NCBI RefSeq assembly: GCF_024502345.1 | Contig: NZ_JALDNN010000001.1 | Origin: Escherichia coli | GTDB lineage: Bacteria; Pseudomonadota; Gammaproteobacteria; Enterobacterales; Enterobacteriaceae | DNA: 64,000 bases | Direction: 5' to 3' (one strand) | Part shown: positions 33,727 through 48,104 of the stretch, in pieces | How the letters are laid out: every line of letters begins with the position of its first letter | How positions within the stretch are numbered: the stretch's first letter is position 1 | Notes under the pieces: generated by a model | The model's input: only the letters and a program-made list of their open reading frames with translations | Told to the model about the DNA's origin: nothing | Databases searched by the model: none | Translations under genes and position numbers: made by a program

Positions 33727-36540
33727 ATGCCAATGGAGAGCTGTACGCAAATGAACGCCGTAGAAATTGAACAAGCCATCACGGATCTTGCAGAGCAACC
33801 CTTTGATCCTATAGAGTTTCCTTATGCTTTTCTTGAAGCCTTTGGTAACAAGGAAACGACTGTCAAACGCTTGCGCGCCGGTGCATCAAACAAATCCGAC
33901 TTGGGCGGTGTTCTCCAGAGCAATAATATTCACATTCTGACCTGCGAAGCAGGGACTGTGACTCAGATGTTGGCCGCGCTCAAGGCTAGCCCTGCGACAA
34001 CTAAAGCCAAGGCGAAGTTCATCCTGGCTACAGATGGCAAAGATTTCGAAGCTGAAGACCTCGTTAGCGGTCAGACTGTCGCTTGCGCCTTTAAAGACTT
34101 CCCAGATCACTTCGGCTTTTTCTTGCCATTAGCAGGCATTAGCACAGTTCGTCAGATTTGTGAGAACTCCTTTGACATTCGGGCCACTAGCCGGCTGAAT
34201 CGTCTGTATGTCGAGTTGTTGAAAGATAACCCTACCTGGGGGACGGCGGAGCGACGTCATGACATGAACAAATTCATGACTCGGCTGATCTTTTGTTTTT
34301 TCGCTGAGGATACTGACATTTTCGTGGGTAAGGGACGCTTTACTGAAACCGTTGCGCAGATGAGTACAAGAGATTCGTCGAATACGCATGAAGTTATCGC
34401 TACCTTGTTTCGTGCCATGAACACCAGTAACAAAGATAGAGCCGCCGCTGGCATCCCGCGCTGGGCCAATGAGTTTCCTTATGTCAACGGACGCTTGTTC
34501 TCTGGGAGTAATGATGTACCACTGTTCAGTAAGATTGCACGGTCTTATTTGCTCCATGTGGGTAGCCTTGACTGGACCAAGATTAATCCGGATATCTTTG
34601 GCTCGATGATTCAGGCAATTGCCGAAGACGAAGAACGCGGAGAGCTGGGGATGCATTACACCAGCGTACCCAACATCTTAAAAGTTTTGAATCCACTATT
34701 TCTGGACGACCTGCGCGCAAAGCTGGATGAGGCGGGTGACAATCCGCGTATGTTGCTTAACCTGCGTAAGCGCATTTCCCACATCCGTGTGTTCGACCCA
34801 GCGTGCGGTTCTGGTAACTTTTTGGTTATCGCGTACAAGGAAATGCGTGCCATTGAGGCCGAAATCAACAAGCGGCGTAATGAGCCAGATCGCGCCTCGG
34901 ATATCCCACTTACCAACTTTCGCGGGATTGAACTAAGAGATTTCCCGGCAGAGATCGCCCGCCTTGCGCTTGTTATCGCTGAGTACCAATGTGATGTACT
35001 GTACCGTGGGCTGCGGTTGGCCTTGGCTGAGCTTCTTCCGTTACGCAACGAAAATTGGATTACCTGTGGCAATGCACTACGGCTCGACTGGTTAAGAATT
35101 TGCCCGCCGACAGGAACAGGTGTGAAATTACATGGCGATGACTTGTTTGGATCTCCGCTTGATCAGGCAGAGATCGACTTTGAGAATGAAGGCGGAGAGA
35201 CATACATTTGCGGTAACCCACCATACCTTGGTTCAAAGTGGCAGACGGATGAACATAAAGCTGATCTTGGCACAATCTTTTCTGGTCGCGTGAAAAATTG
35301 GAAATCGCTCGATTATGTTGCTGGCTGGTTCCTGAAAGCCGCTGACTATGGTAGCCAGACAAGTTCCCAGGCTGCTTTTGTTGCCACTAATTCAATCAGC
35401 CAAGGGCAGCAAGTGTCGATTCTGTGGCCGGAAATATTCAAGGCAGGACAAGAGATTAGTTTCGCTTACACGAGCTTTAAGTGGTCGAACCTCGCTACTC
35501 ACAACGCCGGGGTCACAGTTGTTATCATCGGAATTTCTAACTGTGTAGGAAAGTCGCGACGCCTCTTTTCGGCTGGAGGAGACAATGGTGCGACGACGTG
35601 TCGTGAGGTGGAGCGCATCAACGCCTATTTGATCGCTGGCCCTAACATCATTGTGGAGGGGGACAGTTGTCCAGCCGACAGTCTTGCAACGATGCAGTTC
35701 GGTAACCACCCGTACTATGGTGCATCACTGATCTTTTCGAGATCTGAAGCACAGCAGATGATGTCTGTCGATCCGCGTACGGCGCGTTTTATTCGCCCAC
35801 TATATGGCTCCCAAGAGTTCATTTCCGCTGTGCCACGAGCCTGTCTATGGATTAACGACGATGAGGCTGACGAAGCGGGGACGATTCCTCTGATAGCTGA
35901 GCGTATGAGCGCCGTAGCAAGTGCTAGACGTGCAAAAAAACAAGACAAGGCAGCCCAGAAACTGGCTAAGACTCCATATCGCTTTCGCGACCAGCAGACA
36001 TCTACGAATCATATTCTTGTGGTTCCTCGAGTCAGTTCAGAGAACCGTCCTTGCTTGCCGGTTGGATTACTTGACTCTGACTCTATCGTTCAAGATCAAG
36101 CATTCGCCCTTTACGACGCTCCTCTCTGGAACCTCGCCATCATAGCGAGTCGCCTGCATCTAGTTTGGATCGCCACGGTTTGTGGAAAGTTAGAGACACG
36201 CTACCGCTATTCAAACACCCTCGGCTGGAATACTTTCCCGCTCCCAACACTCACTGAGAAAAATAAGGCAGACCTCACGCGCTGTGCAGAGGATATTCTT
36301 CTGACTAGGGAGCATCACTTCCCTGCAACCATTGCAGACCTTTATGACCCCGAGAAGATGCCAGACGACCTGCGTATTGTGCACGAGCGTAATGACGAAG
36401 TGCTTGAGCGTATTTACATTGGGCGCCGCTTTAAGAATGACACAGAGCGGCTTGAGAAGCTGTTTGACCTTTATACTAAGATGGCCGCTTCAACTGCATC
36501 GGGCAAAAGCAATAAACGTAAAGTGGGAACCAATGCATGA
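33727..36540 (+). CDS. MmeI/PglX-like gamma-class N6-adenine DNA methyltransferase, 937 aa; no recognisable N-terminal PD-ExK motif
   Basis: Motif X-like HYTS, motif I VFDPACGSGNFLV, motif IV ICGNPPYLG; other blocks (RLIFCFFAEDTDIF, FPYVNGRLF, AFVATNSISQGQQVSILWP, LETRYRYSNTLGWNTFP) resemble the MmeI/PglX family from memory. Start could be Met-9 (33751). Confidence 0.85.
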   Translation: MPMESCTQMNAVEIEQAITDLAEQPFDPIEFPYAFLEAFGNKETTVKRLRAGASNKSDLGGVLQSNNIHILTCEAGTVTQMLAALKASPATTKAKAKFILATDGKDFEAEDLVSGQTVACAFKDFPDHFGFFLPLAGISTVRQICENSFDIRATSRLNRLYVELLKDNPTWGTAERRHDMNKFMTRLIFCFFAEDTDIFVGKGRFTETVAQMSTRDSSNTHEVIATLFRAMNTSNKDRAAAGIPRWANEFPYVNGRLFSGSNDVPLFSKIARSYLLHVGSLDWTKINPDIFGSMIQAIAEDEERGELGMHYTSVPNILKVLNPLFLDDLRAKLDEAGDNPRMLLNLRKRISHIRVFDPACGSGNFLVIAYKEMRAIEAEINKRRNEPDRASDIPLTNFRGIELRDFPAEIARLALVIAEYQCDVLYRGLRLALAELLPLRNENWITCGNALRLDWLRICPPTGTGVKLHGDDLFGSPLDQAEIDFENEGGETYICGNPPYLGSKWQTDEHKADLGTIFSGRVKNWKSLDYVAGWFLKAADYGSQTSSQAAFVATNSISQGQQVSILWPEIFKAGQEISFAYTSFKWSNLATHNAGVTVVIIGISNCVGKSRRLFSAGGDNGATTCREVERINAYLIAGPNIIVEGDSCPADSLATMQFGNHPYYGASLIFSRSEAQQMMSVDPRTARFIRPLYGSQEFISAVPRACLWINDDEADEAGTIPLIAERMSAVASARRAKKQDKAAQKLAKTPYRFRDQQTSTNHILVVPRVSSENRPCLPVGLLDSDSIVQDQAFALYDAPLWNLAIIASRLHLVWIATVCGKLETRYRYSNTLGWNTFPLPTLTEKNKADLTRCAEDILLTREHHFPATIADLYDPEKMPDDLRIVHERNDEVLERIYIGRRFKNDTERLEKLFDLYTKMAASTASGKSNKRKVGTNA

Positions 36541-38582
36541 GCAACAAGATTAGATCTGTACCGTCAGTTTCTGTTACCTACTCACGCAACGGAGCATCGA
36601 CCAAGGCTAATTCTCTTGGGATGCGTCCTATGCAAGAAAGGGCTTATGAGAAGCGCGGAGAACAATATCTTCTCATAAAGTCGCCGCCCGCCTCTGGCAA
36701 GAGTCGTGCGCTGATGTTCGTCGCACTCGATAAACTCGCAAACCAGGGGATCAAACAGGCAATCATTGTCGTGCCGGAAAAATCTATCGGCGCGAGCTTC
36801 AACGATGAACCGCTATCGCAGTTTGGATTCTGGGCTGATTGGCATGTTGAACCTAAGTGGAATCTGTGCAACGCCCCCGGTAACGACAACGGCGGCAAGG
36901 TAAAATCTTTCGGCTCTTTTCTTGAAAGTAGCGACAAGGTGCTTGTTTGTACACACGCAACCTTTCGCTTCGCGGTCGATGCCTACGGTGTAGAGGCGTT
37001 TGACGATCGCCTGATCGCCGTCGATGAATTTCACCATGTGTCCGCTAACCCGGATAACAAGCTTGGTCAGCATCTGGGACAGTTCATTGAGCGTGACAAG
37101 ACGCACATCGTGGCCATGACCGGCTCCTACTTCCGGGGAGATGCGGAAGCCGTTTTGGCTCCTCAGGATGAGTCTAGGTTCGATACCGTCACCTACACCT
37201 ACTACGAACAACTCAACGGTTACGAATACCTCAAACAGCTTGATATCGGATACTTCTTTTATAGTGGATCATACATTGATGACATCCTCAATGTCCTCGA
37301 TCCTGACAAGAAAACGATTATCCATATTCCCAACGTCAATTCGCGCGAGAGTACGAAGGATAAAATTAAGGAGGTGGAGCACATTCTGAGCGAGCTTGGC
37401 GATTGGCAAGGTGCGGATCCTACGACTGGTTTTCAGCTAGTCAAGCGCCCCGATGGCCATGTGTTGCGTATTGCTGACCTGGTGGACCCAGCCAGTCAAG
37501 GCAAGATTCAGGAAAGCCTCCGAGCTCCAGAAATGAAGACAGACCGTGACTATGTAGACATCATTATTGCACTTGGTATGGCGAAGGAAGGTTTCGACTG
37601 GATCTGGTGCGAACATGCGCTGACTGTTGGCTACCGTGCCAGCCTGACTGAGATCGTGCAGATTATCGGTCGCGCTACTCGCGACGCGCCGGGTAAAACC
37701 CGCGCGAGATTTACTAACTTGATCGCCGAGCCCGACGCTGTAGAGGGCGCAGTAACTGAGGCAGTCAACGATACCTTGAAAGCTATCGCGGCGAGCCTGT
37801 TGATGGAACAGGTACTGGCTCCGCGCTTCGAGTTCAAGCCCAAGAATCCTGAAATCGGTCCGACTCCAGGCTTTGATTATGGTGATGGAGGATATGACCC
37901 GGATAGCTGCAATTTTGGTGTTAATGAGCAGACAGGGACGTATCAAATCGAGATTAAGGGACTTGCCGAGCCTAGGAGCAAAGAGGCGGCACGTATCTGC
38001 CAGGAAGATTTAAACGAAGTGATCGCGGCCTTTGTGCAGGATAAGCCCGCCATCGAACGAGGCCTGTTCGATGAAGAGCTGATCCCTGAAGAGTTAACAC
38101 AGGTTCGTATGGGTAAGATCATCAAAGAAAAGTATCCTGAACTTGATGCTGAAGATCAGGAGGCTGTACGTCAGCATGCTATCGCCGCCCTTAACCTCAC
38201 GCAGCAGGCCAAGCGTCTTGCTACCGGTGAAAACGATGGGACGCTCAATACTGCTCTTATTGACGGAGTGCGTCGCTTTGCAATGGATGTGCGCGATTTA
38301 GACATAGACCTTATCGACCGCATCAATCCCTTTGGTGAAGCCTACGCTATCCTTGCTAAGACGATGAGTGAAGACAGTTTGAAGCAGGTCGCGGCGGCCA
38401 TCTCGGCCAAGCGTACTTCGATCACGCCTGAAGATGCCAAGGTGATCGCCAAGCGTGCCGCTGAATTCAAACGTGAACGTGGGCGCCTCCCATCGTTAAC
38501 TTCGCTGGATGCTTGGGAAAAACACCTTGCTGAAGGTGCAGCCGCGTTTATGCGTTTTAGGGCGGAGGGACGTTATGAGTAA
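36537..38582 (+). CDS. SF2 DExH-box helicase (ResIII-like), 681 aa, with ~270 aa C-terminal region of unknown function
   Basis: Motif I PPASGKS, motif II AVDEFHHV, motif III MTGS, motif VI QIIGRATRD; ATG overlaps the methyltransferase stop (ATGA). Confidence 0.85.
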   Translation: MSNKIRSVPSVSVTYSRNGASTKANSLGMRPMQERAYEKRGEQYLLIKSPPASGKSRALMFVALDKLANQGIKQAIIVVPEKSIGASFNDEPLSQFGFWADWHVEPKWNLCNAPGNDNGGKVKSFGSFLESSDKVLVCTHATFRFAVDAYGVEAFDDRLIAVDEFHHVSANPDNKLGQHLGQFIERDKTHIVAMTGSYFRGDAEAVLAPQDESRFDTVTYTYYEQLNGYEYLKQLDIGYFFYSGSYIDDILNVLDPDKKTIIHIPNVNSRESTKDKIKEVEHILSELGDWQGADPTTGFQLVKRPDGHVLRIADLVDPASQGKIQESLRAPEMKTDRDYVDIIIALGMAKEGFDWIWCEHALTVGYRASLTEIVQIIGRATRDAPGKTRARFTNLIAEPDAVEGAVTEAVNDTLKAIAASLLMEQVLAPRFEFKPKNPEIGPTPGFDYGDGGYDPDSCNFGVNEQTGTYQIEIKGLAEPRSKEAARICQEDLNEVIAAFVQDKPAIERGLFDEELIPEELTQVRMGKIIKEKYPELDAEDQEAVRQHAIAALNLTQQAKRLATGENDGTLNTALIDGVRRFAMDVRDLDIDLIDRINPFGEAYAILAKTMSEDSLKQVAAAISAKRTSITPEDAKVIAKRAAEFKRERGRLPSLTSLDAWEKHLAEGAAAFMRFRAEGRYE

Positions 38583-39753
38583 TTCTGATTTAGACGATTT
38601 GGCGGCAGAACTTGCTGAATTTGCACCACCGGAGAAGAAAAAAGGACGTCCAGCCAGCGAGGAACGCATCATCGCAGGTTTTGAGGAAATCCAGCGCTTC
38701 GCTGACCAACATGGACGTGCGCCGCAACACGGCGAAGAGCGTGAGATCTTTGAGCGCCTCTATGCAGTGCGGCTCGACCGGCTACGCAGTCTCCCAGACT
38801 GCCGTGCCTTGCTAGAGCCGCTGGATCATCAAGGCTTATTGGCTGGAGGGGGTGATGTAGCGGAGTCAGCGGACGAAATTATCGATATCGATAATTTGGC
38901 TGCCGAACTGACGGATGTTTCCAGCGAGGATGATATCACAGTCTTGCGTCATGTTCGTGCTAGCGCCGAAAAGCGTGCTGTACAAGGGATCGCGGATCGC
39001 AAGCCGTGCGAGGATTTTGATACATTCAAACCGCTATTTGAACAGGTGCGCAGTGATCTAAGTTCAGGGTTAAGAGTGACCCGACCTTTTGGACAGTATG
39101 CAACGATTGAAGTGGGCCATTGGTTCATCCTGGATGGTCAAACGGCTTATGTGGCTGAGGAAGGTGAAGAGTTCGATTCTCCACAGGGGAAGAAAGATGC
39201 TCGGCTGCGTGTCATTTATTCGAATGGTACAGAAAGTAACCTGCTTCGGCTGTCATTAGTTCGTGCTTTGTATAAAGACGAAACAGCACGTCGAATTACC
39301 GATCCAGACATGGGGCCTTTATTCAGCGATGCTCTAGAAGAGAGCGATCTAGAAAGTGGCACCATTTATGTATTGCGTTCGCTATCAGATAACCCTTATG
39401 TGGCCGAACATCGTGATGTTATTCACAAGATTGGTGTGACTGGCGGCAAGGTCGAGACTCGTATTGCTAATGCTGAACACGATTCCACCTATCTGTTGGC
39501 GAAGGTAGAGGTGGTCGCTTCATACAAACTCGCAGGTATCAACCGCACCCGGATGGAAAACCTGTTTCACAGGTTGTTTGCACCCGCAAGGCTTAACATT
39601 ACCATTAACGACCGTTTCGGCCATCCAGTACAGCCCGAGGAATGGTTTCTCGTTCCGTTATTCGTTATCGATGAGGCTGTTGCACGTATTAAGGATGGTA
39701 GCATCATTGGGTATGTTTATGACCCCATGTCTGCGAAACTGGTGAAGGCATAG
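38575..39753 (+). CDS. GIY-YIG-like / T5orf172-like domain protein, ~392 aa (tentative domain call)
   Basis: GGAGG RBS then ATG at 38575 overlapping helicase stop (ATGAGTAA); C-terminal region GTIYVLRS...YVAEHRDVIHKIGVTGGKVETRIAN resembles GIY...YIG-R; acidic N-terminus. Confidence 0.65.
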   Translation: MSNSDLDDLAAELAEFAPPEKKKGRPASEERIIAGFEEIQRFADQHGRAPQHGEEREIFERLYAVRLDRLRSLPDCRALLEPLDHQGLLAGGGDVAESADEIIDIDNLAAELTDVSSEDDITVLRHVRASAEKRAVQGIADRKPCEDFDTFKPLFEQVRSDLSSGLRVTRPFGQYATIEVGHWFILDGQTAYVAEEGEEFDSPQGKKDARLRVIYSNGTESNLLRLSLVRALYKDETARRITDPDMGPLFSDALEESDLESGTIYVLRSLSDNPYVAEHRDVIHKIGVTGGKVETRIANAEHDSTYLLAKVEVVASYKLAGINRTRMENLFHRLFAPARLNITINDRFGHPVQPEEWFLVPLFVIDEAVARIKDGSIIGYVYDPMSAKLVKA

Positions 39754-39868: not shown

Positions 39869-40660
39869 ATGAATAGTAACCTGACCAAGATATGTTACCG
39901 TGGTGAGACTGGTGAAAGTGATCTAAGAACGTTGATACTTGGTGAGATTCTATATATCTCACTACGAGATGTTTTAATCACGCTGAATAAAGAAAATAGA
40001 GAAATCAACGCTGATTACACAGTAAAATCGATGGCTGGAATAATCAGGGCGCAATTACAGGCTCTTGACCCTGATGAGTATATTACTACAGATGCTGAAA
40101 ATGGTGTTTTTGAAGGTCAGAAAGAGATCTTCGTCACCCAGCCAGGTTTGTATCGAGTCATGTCAAGTGACCGAAGCGCTGCCGGTAAGCGCTTTCAAAA
40201 ATGGTTATTTCATGAAGTCATACCATCATTGACTAAGCATGGTGTATACCCGCCTCCGCCAGAAGCGAAAGGTTCAGCCCTTGCACAAATGGCTGAGATA
40301 CTTGCTCAAAATTCGCGAGCACTTGCTGACGCAATCCATAAACACGAAAAACTGGCCGAAGATGTCTCACAGGTTAAAGGTAAAGTTGCCAACGTTGAAA
40401 GCCGTCTGGAACTGTTAGAATCAGGTCCTTCCACTGTAACTGAAGATATGCATACTCTTGATAGCCGTCTCGCTTATTTGGACATGAGCATGGAAGAAAA
40501 GCATACCACCGAGACATTAGCCTGGTGCGAGAATATTTCTGTTCAAAATAACAGGAAGGTGATTCGCAAGGACTGTAGGGAGAATTCGCTCTTTACAACG
40601 CAGACTATCGACGAAGCAATCGCTATCATGACTGAAAGTGGAAAAATCACACCAAATTGA
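39869..40660 (+). CDS. Bro-N domain protein (phage antirepressor-like), 263 aa
   Basis: ...GLYRVMSSDRSAAGKRFQKWLFHEVIPSLTKHG matches the Bro-N/Ant hallmark (F..W...EV.PSI); coiled-coil-like C-terminal half. Confidence 0.7.
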   Translation: MNSNLTKICYRGETGESDLRTLILGEILYISLRDVLITLNKENREINADYTVKSMAGIIRAQLQALDPDEYITTDAENGVFEGQKEIFVTQPGLYRVMSSDRSAAGKRFQKWLFHEVIPSLTKHGVYPPPPEAKGSALAQMAEILAQNSRALADAIHKHEKLAEDVSQVKGKVANVESRLELLESGPSTVTEDMHTLDSRLAYLDMSMEEKHTTETLAWCENISVQNNRKVIRKDCRENSLFTTQTIDEAIAIMTESGKITPN

Positions 40661-40748
40661 AGATCCTGGGGTTCAGATTATCTGCTGGCTATCTTATTGA
40701 GCTCTGACGTAAAATAGGCCTTCCCACAAAGAGAAGGCCATTGCCGAC

Positions 40749-41375
40749 TTACAGATCGATTTGGCTACAGCCGAAGTTACGGTCTCCTTCACCAAACACT
40801 TTGCTTTCGACTTTGGTGAGGTAATCCAGTCGGGTTAACAGCGCTTGGTAGTTATGCTGGAAGTCAGCATTATTGGTATCCAGCACGTACTTACAGTTGT
40901 CAGGAAAATGGACCAGACCAGGGTGATCATCCAGTTTCAGTCCCAGGGCGCTGTACCACGCTCCCGTAATCATCCCTCTCAGGTTATCGTGCTGATCGTA
41001 ATCCCCGAGGTGGTAGTAAGCGTCTTTGTTGAACAACAGGCAAATGTGGTAGTGGCATTTACCTGACTCAGAATACTCTTTCGCCCATATAATAAATAAA
41101 GGGCAACGGTAGATGCGTTTACCTTCACGCTCCTTACGGGTACGGTCAGCCTCCAGTTTAGCTCTGAGGGAATCACGCATTCGGGATATCACCCCTGGTT
41201 CAAGATTAGGGAAACAGCAGATATTGTCTCCGTTATCGACTATCTTCGGATAATGCAGATCGACACGTACCGCCGTTAACCTGGGGTAACGGTTAGTCAA
41301 ATAACATAATAATTTTTTAATCTTGATCTGATATTCGAGGATATGTACTCCATGAGTACCTTGATATGTTTTCAT
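40749..41375 (-). CDS. YagK/YfjJ-family protein (inovirus Gp2-like)
   Basis: 208 aa ORF with Cys/His-rich stretch (CHYHICLLFNKDAYYH); family assignment from memory of CP4-57/CP4-6 yfjJ/yagK. Confidence 0.6.
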   Translation of the reverse strand: MKTYQGTHGVHILEYQIKIKKLLCYLTNRYPRLTAVRVDLHYPKIVDNGDNICCFPNLEPGVISRMRDSLRAKLEADRTRKEREGKRIYRCPLFIIWAKEYSESGKCHYHICLLFNKDAYYHLGDYDQHDNLRGMITGAWYSALGLKLDDHPGLVHFPDNCKYVLDTNNADFQHNYQALLTRLDYLTKVESKVFGEGDRNFGCSQIDL

Positions 41376-41646
41376 AATATATATCTGTATTTGGTCCTAC
41401 GGTCTATAGCAGACCGTACAGGGATGCCATACAGGCAGGGCTATTCCTGGTCACTGTTGTCGGTATATACTGGTATCAGATCTTAGTACGGATATACTGA
41501 TCTGATTACTACTCTTACTGGTGAATACAGGTAGTAAGAGTACACAATGCCATTATATAATACCTATCCAACATCTAAATTTGAGACGAAGGTAGCCCCA
41601 GCCTGTGATGGCTGTTAAAAAGTTACTCTGCAATTAGCTTCTGGAA

Positions 41647-42216
41647 TTAACCGATGATTCCGTTATTCCAGTGCCGCTTCACAGTCGATAAACTGATACT
41701 CAATTTCTTTGCAATCTCAGCCTGAGTAAATCCACCTTTCTTAAGTATTGTGATATCACGTCGGTATTTGCTTCCCTCCTTTCGTCCTAATTTCTTCTTA
41801 ACATGTCGATATCGGCTTTTAGTTGATTTCAGATTGTGAATGTCAATCGTATCCTGACGAGCAATCAAAAAAGACAAGCAACTTTCAGCAGAAGGCTCTA
41901 TCCTTGAAGCTGGATGGTAGCTGTAGATAAAAATTTCTTTTTGAAGGCAAAAAAATAAAATATTCTGTAAGTCCTCCACAGTTCTGCCAAGACAGCTTAG
42001 ATCTGGAATGACAAGCGTGTCCTGCCGGTTCATTTCATGATGAATCAATTGTCTGAGTAAACGTTGCTCTGAAACAACCTCTTTAATATCTACCTGCTCG
42101 ATCACAACATGTTCAGGTAGAATATTAAATTTTTGGCATATCTCAGCAAGTGAGTGATGATCTGTAATGCTTTCTTGCTGTTCGCTACTGCATATGGTGT
42201 AAAAAAATGAACGCAT
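41647..42216 (-). CDS. Serine recombinase-like protein (resolvase/invertase fold), possibly catalytically altered
   Basis: From internal Met: MRSFFYTICSSEQQ (cf. YARVSTxxQ), LVIPDLSCLGRTVEDL (cf. DRLGR), C-terminal HTH GFTQAEIAKKLSISLSTVKRH. Track ORF extends to 42345. Confidence 0.6.
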   Translation of the reverse strand: MRSFFYTICSSEQQESITDHHSLAEICQKFNILPEHVVIEQVDIKEVVSEQRLLRQLIHHEMNRQDTLVIPDLSCLGRTVEDLQNILFFCLQKEIFIYSYHPASRIEPSAESCLSFLIARQDTIDIHNLKSTKSRYRHVKKKLGRKEGSKYRRDITILKKGGFTQAEIAKKLSISLSTVKRHWNNGIIG

Positions 42217-42371
42217 CTGATGCACTCCGGTGTCATAAATTATTCTTTGATACCTGAACAATGTCATTTTGTATAAAAAATAACCAAAAATAGAGCGTGA
42301 TTGCCAGCGATACTTTGAGTGGTAAAGTAGTATTTTACCTCTCATAATTGTTTGTCCTTCTTTGTTACCTC

Positions 42372-43085
42372 TTAGGTTCTGCTCTCCTGTGAGTATGGGT
42401 TTATAATGATGTCATCCGGTGCATTAACACGGTTGGAAACATTTGTTTTACGGATCACTGGCAGCATAACCACCATCTCATTGACATGGTAAATATCAAT
42501 CCAACAAACAACCGGATAAGGCATAACAATCCCCTTTCTTCTAAGAACTTCATTTATCCCGAATATAATTAATTGGGATGTTGACAAGAGTAGAGTCTGC
42601 CCGACATCAAAGTAATAATCCTCAAAGGTTGTTCTATGAATAAGAATAATGTTTGAATATCCCAAGACACTTTGATGCTTTACATTAAAATGTCGTTGAT
42701 TGTAAATGTAAATGGCTTTTTCCATATCGTAATTTTCCCTCAGCGAGGATAGCCTTTCACGTATAACTGTTTTTTCATCTTTCCCCATGAATTCATCATT
42801 AGCGTTCAGTTTAAAGTAATCTGTAATTGGGATTTTTAATGGACTCATGATGTTCGTTTTCCAGATTAACGAACAGTATTCTTCCAGAGTCACTTCTTTT
42901 TCACCTCGATTTCGAATAATTCTTTCATTTATAGTGAATCTTAGTAGATCGTTTTTTAGCTCCTTTATTAGCCATTGATAGCGAAGACATTGCTCGAATA
43001 TATGTACCGTCAACGCCACAGAGTCTGATATGACTGAGGAAAGAGATTTATTATTCATCCTGGCATAATGCTCAAGAGTTTCCAT
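42372..43085 (-). CDS. Hypothetical protein, 237 aa, AT-rich
   Basis: Long ORF with no recognised motifs; between resolvase-like gene and alpA. Confidence 0.55.
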   Translation of the reverse strand: METLEHYARMNNKSLSSVISDSVALTVHIFEQCLRYQWLIKELKNDLLRFTINERIIRNRGEKEVTLEEYCSLIWKTNIMSPLKIPITDYFKLNANDEFMGKDEKTVIRERLSSLRENYDMEKAIYIYNQRHFNVKHQSVLGYSNIILIHRTTFEDYYFDVGQTLLLSTSQLIIFGINEVLRRKGIVMPYPVVCWIDIYHVNEMVVMLPVIRKTNVSNRVNAPDDIIINPYSQESRT

Positions 43086-43245
43086 CTCAGATTCATTTTT
43101 GTGCGTAAAAGTGTATTTTTTATTGGAAATGTTTTTTACTCCTTATAATTAACATTGCTATTAATTAATCCTGTTTGTAAAGGAGAAGTTTATTAATAAG
43201 TAAAAGTCCGCCTGCATCAAGACACGATGAAAATGTCTTCCTTTC

Positions 43246-43458
43246 TTACTCTATTGCCCGGGTTCGTTGTAAAATCCATTCGTCTATTTCAGCCTCTATC
43301 CAGCCGACAGATTGCAGCCCCAGACGACGTTGTTTCGGGAACGTTGGGTCATAGCGTGGCGATTTCGGATTGATCCAGTCATAGATTGTTGAACGTGACA
43401 AGCCCGTTTTGTCAATTACTGTAGAAAGACGAAGTATTTTAACATTAGATTTGTTCAT
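43246..43458 (-). CDS. alpA: AlpA-family prophage regulatory protein (excisionase-like HTH)
   Basis: 70 aa: MNKSNVKILRLSTVIDKTGLSRSTIYDWINPKSPRYDPTFPKQRRLGLQSVGWIEAEIDEWI, characteristic AlpA sequence. Confidence 0.85.
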   Translation of the reverse strand: MNKSNVKILRLSTVIDKTGLSRSTIYDWINPKSPRYDPTFPKQRRLGLQSVGWIEAEIDEWILQRTRAIE

Positions 43459-43649
43459 AGCTGATTACCTCAAATCGAAGTGCTCTGGATGATGTGAGAT
43501 TAGCTTTAAGGCAGCCAATCTAAAATGTATGTGCCAAAAAAACTTTTTTTTACGAACGGGAAATAAATATCCTATTGAAATTTAATGATTTTATTTTTTT
43601 TCTGTCGGGTCCATCAGAACGGTGTGAATTCAGTTACAGCCTTCCGGTC

Positions 43650-44570
43650 CGGTAATGGGCCAGTTATATGTTGAGTGGCTGCGCTTCGATGACTTCTGTT
43701 TCAGTGGGCTGGTCTATCTCCGACGTGCTGTGGCAGGTAGCGGTTCAGCAGTAGCCATTATTCGTTCTGCTCCGTCAGTACCGCACCCAGCAGCCGCAAG
43801 ATGCTCTCTTCATTGGGAAGATACCTACCACTGTCAACGCCAAGATTGTTGGCCGTTTCGTCCGCATCCCCTATTGGTCATTAATGTTGTCCGCTTTCCG
43901 CCGTTTCATCTCTTTGTTCAGGCGCTCCAGCGTGTTTGTGGAGTGGGTTTTTCACTTGGTGTGCTTTCGGGAGGCCGAAGGACGCCAGCACGTCTGCCTC
44001 TGCTTCGTCCATCACCCCGGTGACCGCCGGGTTGCTTTTCTCCCATTGACCGGCAACCTTGCACAGGTGGCATGGGCGCTTTTCTCGTCGGTCTGCACGA
44101 ACACCTGTTGCAGCGCCGCACGGACCACCGACTGGTTTGCACGGCTGACGCGGCTCAGCACGTTGCGCATGAAGTGGACCCGGCAGCGCTGCCAGCTGGC
44201 GGAGAACATCTGCCTATCGCCGCCTTCAGGCTCAGCAGGAAGGTCAGCCAGGATGCCGTTTATCCATGCTTCCTGGATAACCGCGTTGAGCGCCTTCTCA
44301 GACAATCTGTGGGCCTCCAGGAAGGGCGGGAAGTACGTCCCTTTAAGCAGCTTCGGAATACGCAGGTCCACAGCGTGCCGAGCTGGCGGGGACTGACGGT
44401 CACGATAGCCGTTGTGGTAGGTTTCGCGCTCATCGCTGCGCTAGTGGGCTCCGCGTTGATGTGCTGAGTGACATCTGCTTCCATAATGCAGTTGAGCATA
44501 AATTCGGTGAGTTCACGCAGAAAATCCTCGCCGCCGAGTAGCATCAGGGTGTTGCTGAATGTCATGCTGT
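43650..44570 (-). pseudogene. IS256-family (mutator-type) transposase, frameshifted remnant
   Basis: Reverse-strand ORF pieces ...LRELTEFMLNCIMEADVTQHINAEP..., ...RLSEKALNAVIQEAWINGI..., ...VHFMRNVLSRVSRANQS... resemble IS256-family blocks in different frames; GC-rich. Confidence 0.55.
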
Positions 44571-44784
44571 TGTCATTCCGAATTTACACCACGCCCTAAG
44601 ACTCTACCTTATTTTCTTTGCAAAGCAGGCTGCTTGTGCAAGTTGTACATGTAGTTAACAGGCAGTAAGTATGGCAAACCATTATTTCATGTCTTCACAT
44701 CTGGTTCTTCATTCAGTTAAGTAGTAAAAATGAAAGGGATGTCAGAGCAAGAACAGATGACGTTGTGTAACTGACCAATGAAGG

Positions 44785-45558
44785 ATGATATGGAATATGC
44801 TTGATATTTTTTGCTCGGAATTTGAAGAAAAAAGAAACAAATTAAAGACCTACCTTGAAAGCTCGGGATTTCTTTATAGGCATTCTATCATCAAAAAAAT
44901 GTCTCTTTTGGATGGTATGGATGAAAGCCAGAATTTTGAGTTGTTGCAGGCGAAACAATATAATCGTGATGATATACAATGCTGGGAGTATATTAGCTCT
45001 AAGTGGACCGTCGTTCCTATTATGATGGGTTCGCAAAGCCTTAAACACTTTTTTACATGGAATTTTAAGGCCGCTGGGATATTTCAGCGATATGGAAAGG
45101 ATATGTGGGATATCAACAAGATAATTGCAGTTAAATCTTTATTGTTTGCTAGTTCAGTCTTAGGTAGTTGCCTTGGGGTTGCAGGCTATGGCCCGTTGCT
45201 GCCTTCGGAGCTTGCATTAGACAAAAAGAAGCTAACTAAGAAAAAACAGTCAGCAAGAATGGGAGGGATATCTAAGGCTGAATTATATCTCCCGATAAAA
45301 GAAGAGACGATAAGATTGCTCCACCAAAATGTTCCTGTGGATGGTAGATGGAAAAATAAAACGGTTGCAGCAAAGGCAATAGAGGCAGATTTAGTCATCT
45401 TTGTACAAAATTTGAAATCTCAAAACCAAAATCTGGATCTTAATGAAGAAGATATTATTACAGTCGTCAAACGTTGGGAACGCAATGATGAAAGAGTAAA
45501 GGCTGCATTTGAGGGAACGGTGAAGCAAAAAATCTCTGGCAAGAAGGGCTCGGGTTAG
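44785..45558 (+). CDS. Hypothetical protein, 257 aa, AT-rich, integrase-proximal
   Basis: Long ORF with no recognised motifs; AAGGA RBS favours the second ATG (44797); convergent with integrase. Confidence 0.65.
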   Translation: MIWNMLDIFCSEFEEKRNKLKTYLESSGFLYRHSIIKKMSLLDGMDESQNFELLQAKQYNRDDIQCWEYISSKWTVVPIMMGSQSLKHFFTWNFKAAGIFQRYGKDMWDINKIIAVKSLLFASSVLGSCLGVAGYGPLLPSELALDKKKLTKKKQSARMGGISKAELYLPIKEETIRLLHQNVPVDGRWKNKTVAAKAIEADLVIFVQNLKSQNQNLDLNEEDIITVVKRWERNDERVKAAFEGTVKQKISGKKGSG

Positions 45559-45587
45559 AACTTCTCATTATTTTTTCCAAAAATAAG

Positions 45588-45612
45588 AACCGCGCCTTTG
45601 AAGGCGCGGATT
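45588..45612 (-). terminator. Probable intrinsic terminator downstream of the integrase gene
   Basis: Hairpin CCGCGCCTT-TGAA-AAGGCGCGG followed (reverse strand) by a T-rich run. Confidence 0.5.
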
Positions 45613-45620
45613 AAGTAGAA

Positions 45621-46862
45621 TCAAACAACAAGTTTTAATGCACCGGCACTAGATTCTACCATGCTTCCTTTATCTGCTCTTTTAACAAAATCAGCCCACC
45701 ATTGCATCATCGGCCTACGTTGCTCAAGATAATCACTGCGGTTATAAGCGCGACGTACCTCATTTTTGTCTACATGAGCAAGTGCGGCTTCAATGACATC
45801 AGGAGGAAATCCTTGCTCATTGAGGGCTGTACTGGCGATAGAACGCAAACCATGTGAAACCAGCACTCCCCCTAAACCGGCACGCTTGAGTGCAGCATTC
45901 ACGGTTTGACTGTTCATCGGCTGAGTGGGCTTAATGCGGCTTGGAAAAATAAAATCTCGGCCACCACTGAGCGGCTTCATCATTTCCAGAATAGCCAGAG
46001 CCCCATCAGATAATGGAACGGTATGGTCCCGGTTCATTTTCATTCGGGCTGCTGGAATTTTCCATTCGTTAGCATCAAAATCGATCTCATTCCACCGAGC
46101 TTCTGCGGCTTCTGCGGGGCGGGTGATGGTGAGAAGTTGCCACATGAACAGACACCGCGTAGACAGGCTGATACTGGCCGTACGCATAGTTTGCATCAAC
46201 TGAGGCAACTGATCCGGACGAATACTGGGCATGTTCTTTTTCTGAGGTTTCTCGAAGGCTTTGCCAATATTAACACTGGGAACTGCATCAATCAGGCCCG
46301 TGTTTTGGGCATAAATCATGACTTCATTGATCCGTTGGCAAAGACGGCGGACAGTTTCCAGTGCTCCTCGGGCCTGAACGGGTTGAACGGCTTGAACCAG
46401 TGTATGGGCTTTAATATCTGTAACGCTTACGTTGCCAATTGCGGGAAATATATCTCTTTCAAGCGAACGCCAGATATCATCAGCATAGTCCTCGGTTACA
46501 CTGGCTTTCTTCACATTCCACCAACGCTCGGCAACTAACAAGAAAGTGTTGGTTTTGGCCTCCTGAGAATTTCTTATCTGTTCTTTTTGGTATTCCTGAG
46601 GATCGATTCCTTTTGCCAGTAATACTTTGGATTCAGCTCTGAGCTTACGAGCATCGGAAAGCGAGACAGCAGGATAGGAACCGAAGCTCTGTTTAGTTCG
46701 CTGTTTTGTCAGAGGTCGGTAATAACGGAATTGCCAGAGCTTACTGCCACTGGATTTGATTAGCAGCGTCAGTCCGTCACCATCATACAACTGATAATCG
46801 GCATCTTTAGATTTGGCTGCTTTGATTTCCGTATCCGTTAACGGCTTGGTTTTTCTTGCCAC
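45621..46862 (-). CDS. intA: P4/CP4-57-type tyrosine integrase (IntA-like)
   Basis: 413 aa: MARKTKPLTDTEIKAAKSKDADYQLYDGDGLTLLIKSSGSKLWQFRYY...; C-terminal catalytic region HGLRSIASTA...AHVDKNEVRRAYNRSDY; adjacent to ssrA 3' end. Confidence 0.93.
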   Translation of the reverse strand: MARKTKPLTDTEIKAAKSKDADYQLYDGDGLTLLIKSSGSKLWQFRYYRPLTKQRTKQSFGSYPAVSLSDARKLRAESKVLLAKGIDPQEYQKEQIRNSQEAKTNTFLLVAERWWNVKKASVTEDYADDIWRSLERDIFPAIGNVSVTDIKAHTLVQAVQPVQARGALETVRRLCQRINEVMIYAQNTGLIDAVPSVNIGKAFEKPQKKNMPSIRPDQLPQLMQTMRTASISLSTRCLFMWQLLTITRPAEAAEARWNEIDFDANEWKIPAARMKMNRDHTVPLSDGALAILEMMKPLSGGRDFIFPSRIKPTQPMNSQTVNAALKRAGLGGVLVSHGLRSIASTALNEQGFPPDVIEAALAHVDKNEVRRAYNRSDYLEQRRPMMQWWADFVKRADKGSMVESSAGALKLVV

Positions 46863-47044
46863 GGTGGAGTCTCCATGCTTTTAGGCCCAACAAAGACCAT
46901 AGATCTTTTCGTTGGGCCTATCAATGGGCCTAAAACAATTAGCTTAGGTAGGATCAAATCAGATAGCGCTGGACATAAAAAAGCCCGTAAGTCGTTGTGA
47001 CTACGGGTTTTTTGGTTTTTCTTGGATTGCTTTGGAATAAAATT

Positions 47045-47407
47045 TGGTGGAGCTGGCGGGAGTTGAACCCGCGTCCGAAATTCCTACATCCTCGGTACTA
47101 CATGCTTAGTCAGTCTTTACATTCGCTTGCCAGCTGCGGACGGACACGCCACTAACAAACTAGCCTGATTAAGTTTTAACGCTTCAACCCCAGGCAGGGC
47201 TTCCACGCGATCTCTTTTGGGTTTGACCTCTCTTGATCCCCGTCCTAAGAGCGGAGGCTAGGGAGAGAGGGCTCTAAGCAGGTTATTAAGCTGCTAAAGC
47301 GTAGTTTTCGTCGTTTGCGACTATTTTTTGCGGCTTTTTACGAGGCCAACCGCCCCTCGGCATGCACCTTGGGTTTCGCAAATCCCGTCGAATCCAGAAT
47401 CAGCCCC
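47045..47407 (-). ncRNA. ssrA: tmRNA (SsrA), 363 nt
   Basis: Reverse complement begins GGGGCTGATTCTGGATTCGACGGG and ends GGTTCAACTCCCGCCAGCTCCACCA; terminator-like hairpin follows at ~46975-47015. Confidence 0.97.
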
Positions 47408-47621
47408 AATGTGTAAAGGTAAGTATACCAGATTTATGAGCGCCATGACCAGCCTCAATGGCGTTATCGTTAAAGATTTAGCACCCATGTAGCCTGATTT
47501 TTATTCGATTAAGCAATGGAATGGCAACATTTGTGTCGGATGTGATAACCAATAAGATGTTCATTCGCGCCGCCGGAGAGGGAGGCGCGGTGAGGAACTG
47601 GTCAATAATTGGAGTGCAGGT

Positions 47622-48104
47622 TTAACGGTGGGCGTTTTTCATGATACGCGCTTTATCCACCTGCCATTCGCGCTCTTTGATATCTGAACGTTTATCGTGC
47701 TGTTTCTTACCTTTGGCGACGCCGATTTTCACTTTGCACCAGGCATTTTTCCAGTACAGGGAGAGCGCCACTACGGTATAGCCTTCTCGATTGACGCGAC
47801 CGTACAATGAGTCCAGTTCGCGCTGGTTGAGAAGTAACTTGCGGGTACGGGTAGGGTCGCACACCACATGCGTGGAGGCCACGGCCATTGGCGTGATGTT
47901 AGCGCCAAACAGAAATGCCTCTCCGTCACGCAGAAGGACGTAGCTGTCGCTGATATTGGCTTTTCCTGCGCGCAGGGATTTAACCTCCCAGCCTTGCAGG
48001 GCAAGTCCCGCTTCGAACTCTTCTTCGATAAAGTATTCGTGACGGGCGCGCTTGTTAAGCGCGATGGTCGCTGAACCAGGTTTATGTGCTTTTTTCTTCG
48101 TCAT
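47622..48104 (-). CDS. smpB: SsrA-binding protein
   Basis: 160 aa [37 protein letters not shown]... Confidence 0.96.

Follow-up and report, generated by a model that had tools for sequence, protein, structure and literature searches.

The window, a 64,000-nt stretch of Escherichia coli DNA (contig NZ_JALDNN010000001.1), carries on its minus strand at 42372..43085 an open reading frame (ORF) listed at 237 aa. This gene is yagM, known from E. coli islands but uncharacterised, and belongs to the family Pfam PF27701/UCP007319. We favour, with somewhat better than even confidence, the reading that yagM belongs to the core of the alpA-yagM-yagL-yagK module found in P4-integrase-type islands and that it encodes a low-abundance ribbon-helix-helix (RHH) regulator started at ATT. 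Family membership, an extended coding sequence under selection, the assignment of the RHH fold and conserved synteny are the established steps of this reading. By analogy with known systems, we infer that YagM may act as a sequence-specific DNA-binding regulator or accessory factor of the island module. The gene itself is ordinary, part of the backbone in a known type of island and a member of a named but uncharacterised family; what is added at the level of annotation is the CopG-like RHH head and the conserved ATT start.

The ORF is real and AT-rich (GC 0.36, 0.49 for the whole window), and it lies between alpA (43246..43458) upstream and a resolvase-like gene (41647..42345) downstream, as a sequence-only reading of the window had reported. 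The chance of a 256-codon open frame at this composition is ~7e-9, and the ratio of nonsynonymous to synonymous divergence (pN/pS) is 0.2-0.3 against relatives, as for a coding ORF. The same reading had called the gene an orphan, which is refuted by its match to K-12 YagM (b0279, CP4-6 cryptic prophage): the 237-aa protein aligns with residues 48-284 at 83% identity (BLASTP E 3e-152). DNA that is 100% identical is present in E. coli KCJ3K291, where the RefSeq names are 'protein YagM', yagL and yagK. A 237-aa protein that is 99% identical to the window protein (P0042) bears the precomputed Pfam assignment PF27701 'UCP007319', and in a profile search, in which family members scored 338-173 bits, PF27701 was assigned to every match. 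Scans of the 237-aa and K-12 proteins against Pfam, NCBIfam, PHROGs and PADLOC gave no match, and a Pfam scan of 27 family members gave noise only. The empty Pfam scans are explained by the PF27701 model being newer than the Pfam copy scanned. Among phage families, there was no PHROG match at E <= 0.1 and no BFVD fold match at E <= 0.001. The sequence-only reading had held that identification as a known prophage structural or regulatory protein would speak against it; YagM is known in this sense only formally, as a named CP4-6 protein of untested function.

The YagM family is small, with 37 members found among 1.84 billion protein representatives. A scan of 100,044 species genomes with a narrower alignment found 3 yagM loci, and of 5,426 complete E. 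coli genomes, 6 carry the 5' region of the window allele.

The 5' end at 43085, as first proposed, is probably wrong, because homologous and selected coding sequence runs on to an ATT at 43130. Upstream of the ATG at 43083..43085, which was chosen by the sequence-only reading and by gene callers and corresponds to codon 16 of the revised protein, the frame stays open for 15 codons to the ATT at 43128..43130. The residues ahead of this Met read G V K N I S N K K Y T F T H K N E S E. The frame is bounded by an in-frame TAA (43145-43143), which overlaps a Shine-Dalgarno (SD) sequence AAGGAG (43139..43144, read from sequence) located 8 nt upstream of the ATT. Between this TAA and the ATG at 43085, the ATT is the sole start-like codon, and there is no ATG, GTG or TTG above codon 16. 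The true coding sequence is most likely 42372..43130 on the minus strand (252 codons and stop), and translation in the window lineage most likely starts at AUU; the open frame, allele lengths, family lengths and the nucleotide alignment to K-12 yagM all point to this revision.

Proteins of the family are 246-267 aa long, most commonly 252, and begin with M-S/P-K-R/K-x-T-F, typically M-S/P-K-R/K-I-T-F. The window protein has this length and N-terminus only with the ATT start (252 aa, I/M-SNKKYTFTH), and the 237-aa model has neither. Five alleles carry the ATT: that of the window, shared with Mixta (L007), and those of K. oxytoca (L003), Citrobacter (L008), C. freundii (L006) and locus L014. They come from three deep lineages, and each is exactly 759 nt long from the ATT (252 codons). 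The GGAG is invariant in alignment A2 and in L014. Relatives have ATG at the same position: L009 reads AAT ATG TCC AGG where L003 reads AAT ATT TCC AGT, and P0040 begins MPSKKYTF with an ATG at the position of the ATT. In a sensitive blastn comparison, similarity to K-12 yagM stops at 43127, which is one codon into the gene as started from the ATT. At the position of the ATT, K-12 yagM has ATA; its protein YagM (284 aa) is extended at the N-terminus by 33 lineage-specific residues, which start from an upstream ATG (L002 7626-7727) and are absent from most family members. Two other modes of initiation were considered: a +1 shift on the A-run out of an upstream mini-ORF (window, L003), and reinitiation after termination at the TAA of GGAGTAA (L014). 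Both were rejected, since the ATT alleles share the ATT but neither of these features.

AUU starts are confirmed in E. coli only for infC and pcnB, and AUU gives ~1-2% of the output of AUG (bioRxiv 10.1101/063800). Therefore, YagM protein should be scarce. As in infC and pcnB, the ATT of yagM stands behind a good SD, which implies a low, IF3-responsive output. In contrast to these genes, the yagM start is deduced from comparison, and some relatives use ATG. If true, a conserved natural AUU start would be added to the two confirmed ones. As gene finders ignore ATT starts, one yagM lineage is systematically mis-called, as a protein of 237 aa or 213 aa or as a pseudogene.

The first ~45 residues of YagM (residues 1-45, 42996..43130, minus strand) are probably a CopG-like RHH domain, the beta-strand of which is encoded by the 15 recovered codons. 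In an hmmsearch over the whole PDB, family profile positions 1-39 align end to end with residues 1-38 of CopG from pMV158 (E 0.13), and hhalign of the family against CopG gives 92% probability with a pairwise E of 5.7e-7. The aligned pair is MKKRLTITLS..LSKSAMIS in CopG and MSKRITF..ISRSsVIS in the family. The N-terminal ~45 residues have the strand-helix-turn-helix order of an RHH domain, and the Ser/Thr that starts helix B and anchors it to the phosphate backbone is S31. This residue is invariant in alignment A1 and nearly so in A3 (xSRSxVIS; KSLSSVIS in the window), and aligns to LSKSAMIS of CopG. An AlphaFold2 monomer model (predicted local distance difference test score, pLDDT, 86.7) has an extended N-terminus, with residues 1-12 as coil, and helices at 13-25 and 30-76. 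The sequence-only reading had seen no recognisable domain, which agrees with the Pfam, NCBIfam, PHROGs and PADLOC scans but not with the profile and structure methods that point to the N-terminal RHH.

A C-terminal alpha/beta domain follows at residues ~78-252 (42375..42899, minus strand), and neither solved structures nor viral models offer a close match to it. Across the family, S31, W90, E119, R146, G157, F174 and P224 are invariant or nearly so, and the invariance of D175 is limited to the smaller alignments. The proteins of the family, that of the K-12 y-gene included, can thus be classed as CopG-like RHH proteins whose C-terminal domain is without a match among solved structures.

The genetic context of yagM is conserved. 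Around 11 contexts were compared, a sample and not a census, comprising the window, K-12, K. oxytoca, three Citrobacter, Mixta, Aeromonas and several metagenome contigs, with identities down to 24-34%. A tyrosine integrase of P4 type and a YagK/YfjJ gene accompany yagM in all 11, and an AlpA-type gene in nearly all; the usual order is int - x - alpA - yagM - yagL - yagK. A yagL homologue follows yagM in 9 of the 11 and is absent in L010 and L011; at the rearranged Aeromonas locus L013, it is not detectable. The suggestion that the gene forms a unit with its resolvase-like neighbour is therefore sound as far as it goes, but the unit is wider than yagM and yagL. In the window, alpA (43246..43458, minus strand; Pfam Phage_AlpA, E 1.4e-21) is the upstream gene of the module. 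The gap between alpA and yagM is 45 nt in L010, which fits co-transcription. The ssrA site is also that of K-12 CP4-57, which has alpA-yfjI-yfjJ in place of alpA-yagM-yagL-yagK; CP4-57 thus carries yfjI where the window island has yagM and yagL, so that the slot between alpA and the Gp2-family gene is modular.

The gene had been described as unassigned in function and located in the regulatory part of an island, and both points are borne out. A P4-type, intA-like integrase (45621..46862, minus strand; RefSeq 'intA integrase') adjoins smpB and the transfer-messenger RNA gene ssrA (47045..47407, minus strand; ARAGORN; Rfam RF00023, 295.8 bits). Hence, the island is integrated at ssrA. Over 40712-47626, it is a mosaic of the K-12 cryptic elements CP4-57 and CP4-6. 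The DNA from ssrA to intA is 87.7% identical to CP4-57, and alpA is ~70% identical to the alpA of that element, while yagM-yagL-yagK is 93% identical to CP4-6 over 40712..43127. The downstream neighbours of K-12 yagM are like those in the window (amino acid identity 99.5% for yagL and 93% for yagK). The upstream side differs, with yagN-ykgV-intF in K-12 and alpA-intA at ssrA in the window.

We propose the following mechanism for YagM. Two chains would pair their N-terminal strands to form a beta-ribbon that reads the DNA major groove, with dimerisation through the RHH and the long helix and binding to specific DNA. The long helix (30-76) and the ~170-residue alpha/beta domain would probably serve oligomerisation or the binding of a partner or signal. 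Bound to operator repeats in the module, YagM would set the expression of two downstream genes, yagL and the Rep-like (HUH-type) yagK, and probably its own, and the AUU start would hold its level low. A search for such operators found that the alpA-yagM spacer holds AT-rich repeats, which distant loci do not share.

This role as a tuner of yagL and yagK expression is proposed by analogy with copG-repB, which are co-transcribed from a promoter repressed by CopG (PMC2724298). CopG (RepA) of pMV158 is a 45-aa RHH repressor of copG-repB, to which the N-terminal ~39 residues of YagM align. Furthermore, yagM shares its strand with a downstream gene that resembles rolling-circle Rep genes and has an HUH motif. 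The two systems differ in several respects: YagM has 252 aa, a long helix and an extra domain of ~170 residues, yagL intervenes before the Rep-like gene, and the element in the window is an integrated island and not a plasmid. Repression by YagM would be expected by analogy. If the proposal is true, YagM binding sites and the yagK leader offer a handle on the control of Rep-like genes in CP4-6/CP4-57-type islands.

A possible but less probable alternative is that YagM is an accessory factor of an origin or nick site and not mainly a repressor of transcription. Bound beside the site that the HUH-like YagK uses after excision, it would help to load or position YagK; or, by sitting on origin repeats, it would keep copy number down. 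This proposal is in keeping with the conserved 270-bp region upstream of yagK. This spacer (41376..41646, minus strand) is a candidate promoter, leader, origin or operator. A non-coding spacer of ~270-310 bp precedes yagK in every locus, and its mean identity over 6 loci is 89%, above that of the yagM coding sequence. It contains a promoter-like TTTAGA-16-TATAAT, a perfect 10-nt inverted repeat (41510-41542) and two more hairpins, and its RNA fold z-score is -3.9. As an RNA, it has no Rfam match and no covariation or compensatory changes. From these sequence features, the spacer might act as a leader RNA or an operator, or supply the hairpins of an origin or nick site. However, the RHH is the most variable region of YagM between K-12 and the window, whereas the yagK leader is nearly identical between these islands, which speaks against the leader as the specific target of YagM. 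In addition, the YagK paralogue YfjJ of CP4-57 works without any YagM, in the context alpA-yfjI-yfjJ.

RHH proteins such as TraM assist HUH relaxases, as do TraY and NikA. The likeness of these proteins to YagM is one of fold only, and no oriT, relaxase or transfer genes were identified here.

A more far-reaching version of the regulator proposal would make YagM the specificity switch of defence-carrying integrase/AlpA/Gp2-Rep islands, and we consider it improbable. The RHH head would hold a promoter or origin, the C-terminal domain of unknown fold would sense a signal for release, such as a helper-phage or host protein, and the IF3-responsive AUU would set a deliberately low level. Where ATG-16 is kept, a strand-less 237-aa isoform would act as a dominant negative.

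We give slightly less credence to the view that yagM is a pseudogene, a decaying remnant which lost its start by ATG>ATT. The identical sequence bears a pseudogene flag from the annotation pipeline PGAP, with the label 'protein YagM, incomplete, missing N-terminus', and has no canonical start upstream of codon 16. The island is a mosaic with insertion sequence (IS) debris nearby. In addition, K-12 yagM ranks among the strongest Rho-dependent terminators, by which the K-12 homologue is silenced (PMC12133298); the literature on yagM consists of high-throughput mentions and its use as a Rho terminator substrate only. Decay would give frameshifts, stops and pN/pS near 1. The five ATT alleles, instead, keep the 252-codon frame, the ATT and the GGAG although synonymous divergence (pS) among the three deep lineages is near saturation at 0.6-0.7. 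Their pN/pS stays at 0.2-0.3, including the recovered codons: compared between ATT lineages, it is 0.18-0.40 for codons 2-15 and 0.20-0.31 for codons 40-252. A pseudogene is therefore unlikely.

Doubtful to a still greater degree is a 237-aa protein started from the ATG at 43085, which would be, for example, a partner or modulator of YagL or YagK, or a dominant-negative isoform beside a rare full-length form. This start is a canonical ATG, it is the choice of gene callers in the E. coli, K. oxytoca and C. freundii alleles (P0042, P0045, P0046), and the Met is present in 4 of the 5 ATT alleles. However, the ATG has no usable, properly spaced SD, as GAG abuts it directly, and the Met is replaced by Leu in L014, K-12 and P0040. 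In L014, the next ATG is located 39 codons downstream of the ATT, within the RHH. The upstream codons evolve under purifying selection and agree with the family N-terminus. As they encode the strand, the 237-aa form would lack the element that reads DNA.

Least probable is a part in a toxin-antitoxin or anti-phage defence system, with an RHH antitoxin-like head and an effector or sensor domain: PADLOC gives no match, the contexts examined hold no toxin-like gene beside yagM (its neighbours are AlpA, YagL and YagK), yagM belongs to the conserved backbone and not to the variable cargo, and K-12 yagM, recovered on overexpression in an ASKA-library screen (PMC8228696), is not obviously toxic. RHH antitoxins and copy-number controllers such as ParD, TacA, FitA and PrpA differ from YagM, which is without an adjacent cognate toxin gene. 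The C-terminal part of YagM is a stably folded domain and no short tail for wrapping a toxin.

The two downstream genes of the module were also inspected. The resolvase-like yagL (41647..42345, minus strand) has a resolvase-like N-terminal part and a helix-turn-helix (HTH), with weak Pfam matches to Resolvase and HTH_7 and an NCBIfam match to a Mpi-type invertase (E 3e-11). Its true start is probably M44 at 42216, giving 189 aa rather than 232 aa: in other loci, homologues are annotated at 189-194 aa, and tblastn similarity is confined to those 189 residues. The 232-aa ORF is also the K-12 annotation. In the serine-recombinase motif YTICSSEQQ, the Ser is kept, and the Arg of 'RVS' is replaced by Ile; because of this replacement, YagL may be a catalytically degenerate, HTH-only regulator. 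The RefSeq labels for YagL vary between ECF sigma factor, recombinase and wHTH regulator. The gene yagK (40749..41375, minus strand) encodes a YagK/YfjJ protein of the 'inovirus Gp2 family' (PF11726, E 1e-65; weak PF23343 REP_ORF2-G2P) with the HUH-like motifs CHYHI and YLTK. A PDB sequence search gave nothing for YagK and noise only for YagL.

CP4-6/CP4-57-type islands often bear anti-phage cargo. In the window, the cargo at 33727-39753 (plus strand), adjacent to the backbone, is probably an anti-phage cluster. It contains a MmeI-family type IIL restriction-modification enzyme of 937 aa with all five MmeI Pfam domains, the gene of which overlaps that of a DEAD/ResIII helicase (681 aa), and a T5orf172/MUG113 GIY-YIG-like protein (414 aa). 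Other loci carry other cargo in the same place, namely a DNA methylase with large proteins, type I restriction-modification, and Fic.

Between the integrase and alpA, a 257-aa ORF (44785-45558, plus strand) has no Pfam domain and matches PHROG 19089 (E 1e-19). It occupies the yfjH position of CP4-57, and homologues of 38-100% identity are found in the same place in L001, L003, L006, L007, L008, L012 and L017. The overlapping ORFs on both strands at 43655-44600, which separate alpA from this ORF, are frameshifted transposase fragments in RefSeq (L001 10261-11065) and represent IS debris within the regulatory part of the island. Convergent with yagK, a 263-aa Bro-N domain protein is encoded at 39869-40660 (plus strand), and at the distant locus L016, a 263-aa Bro-N gene is likewise located beside yagK.
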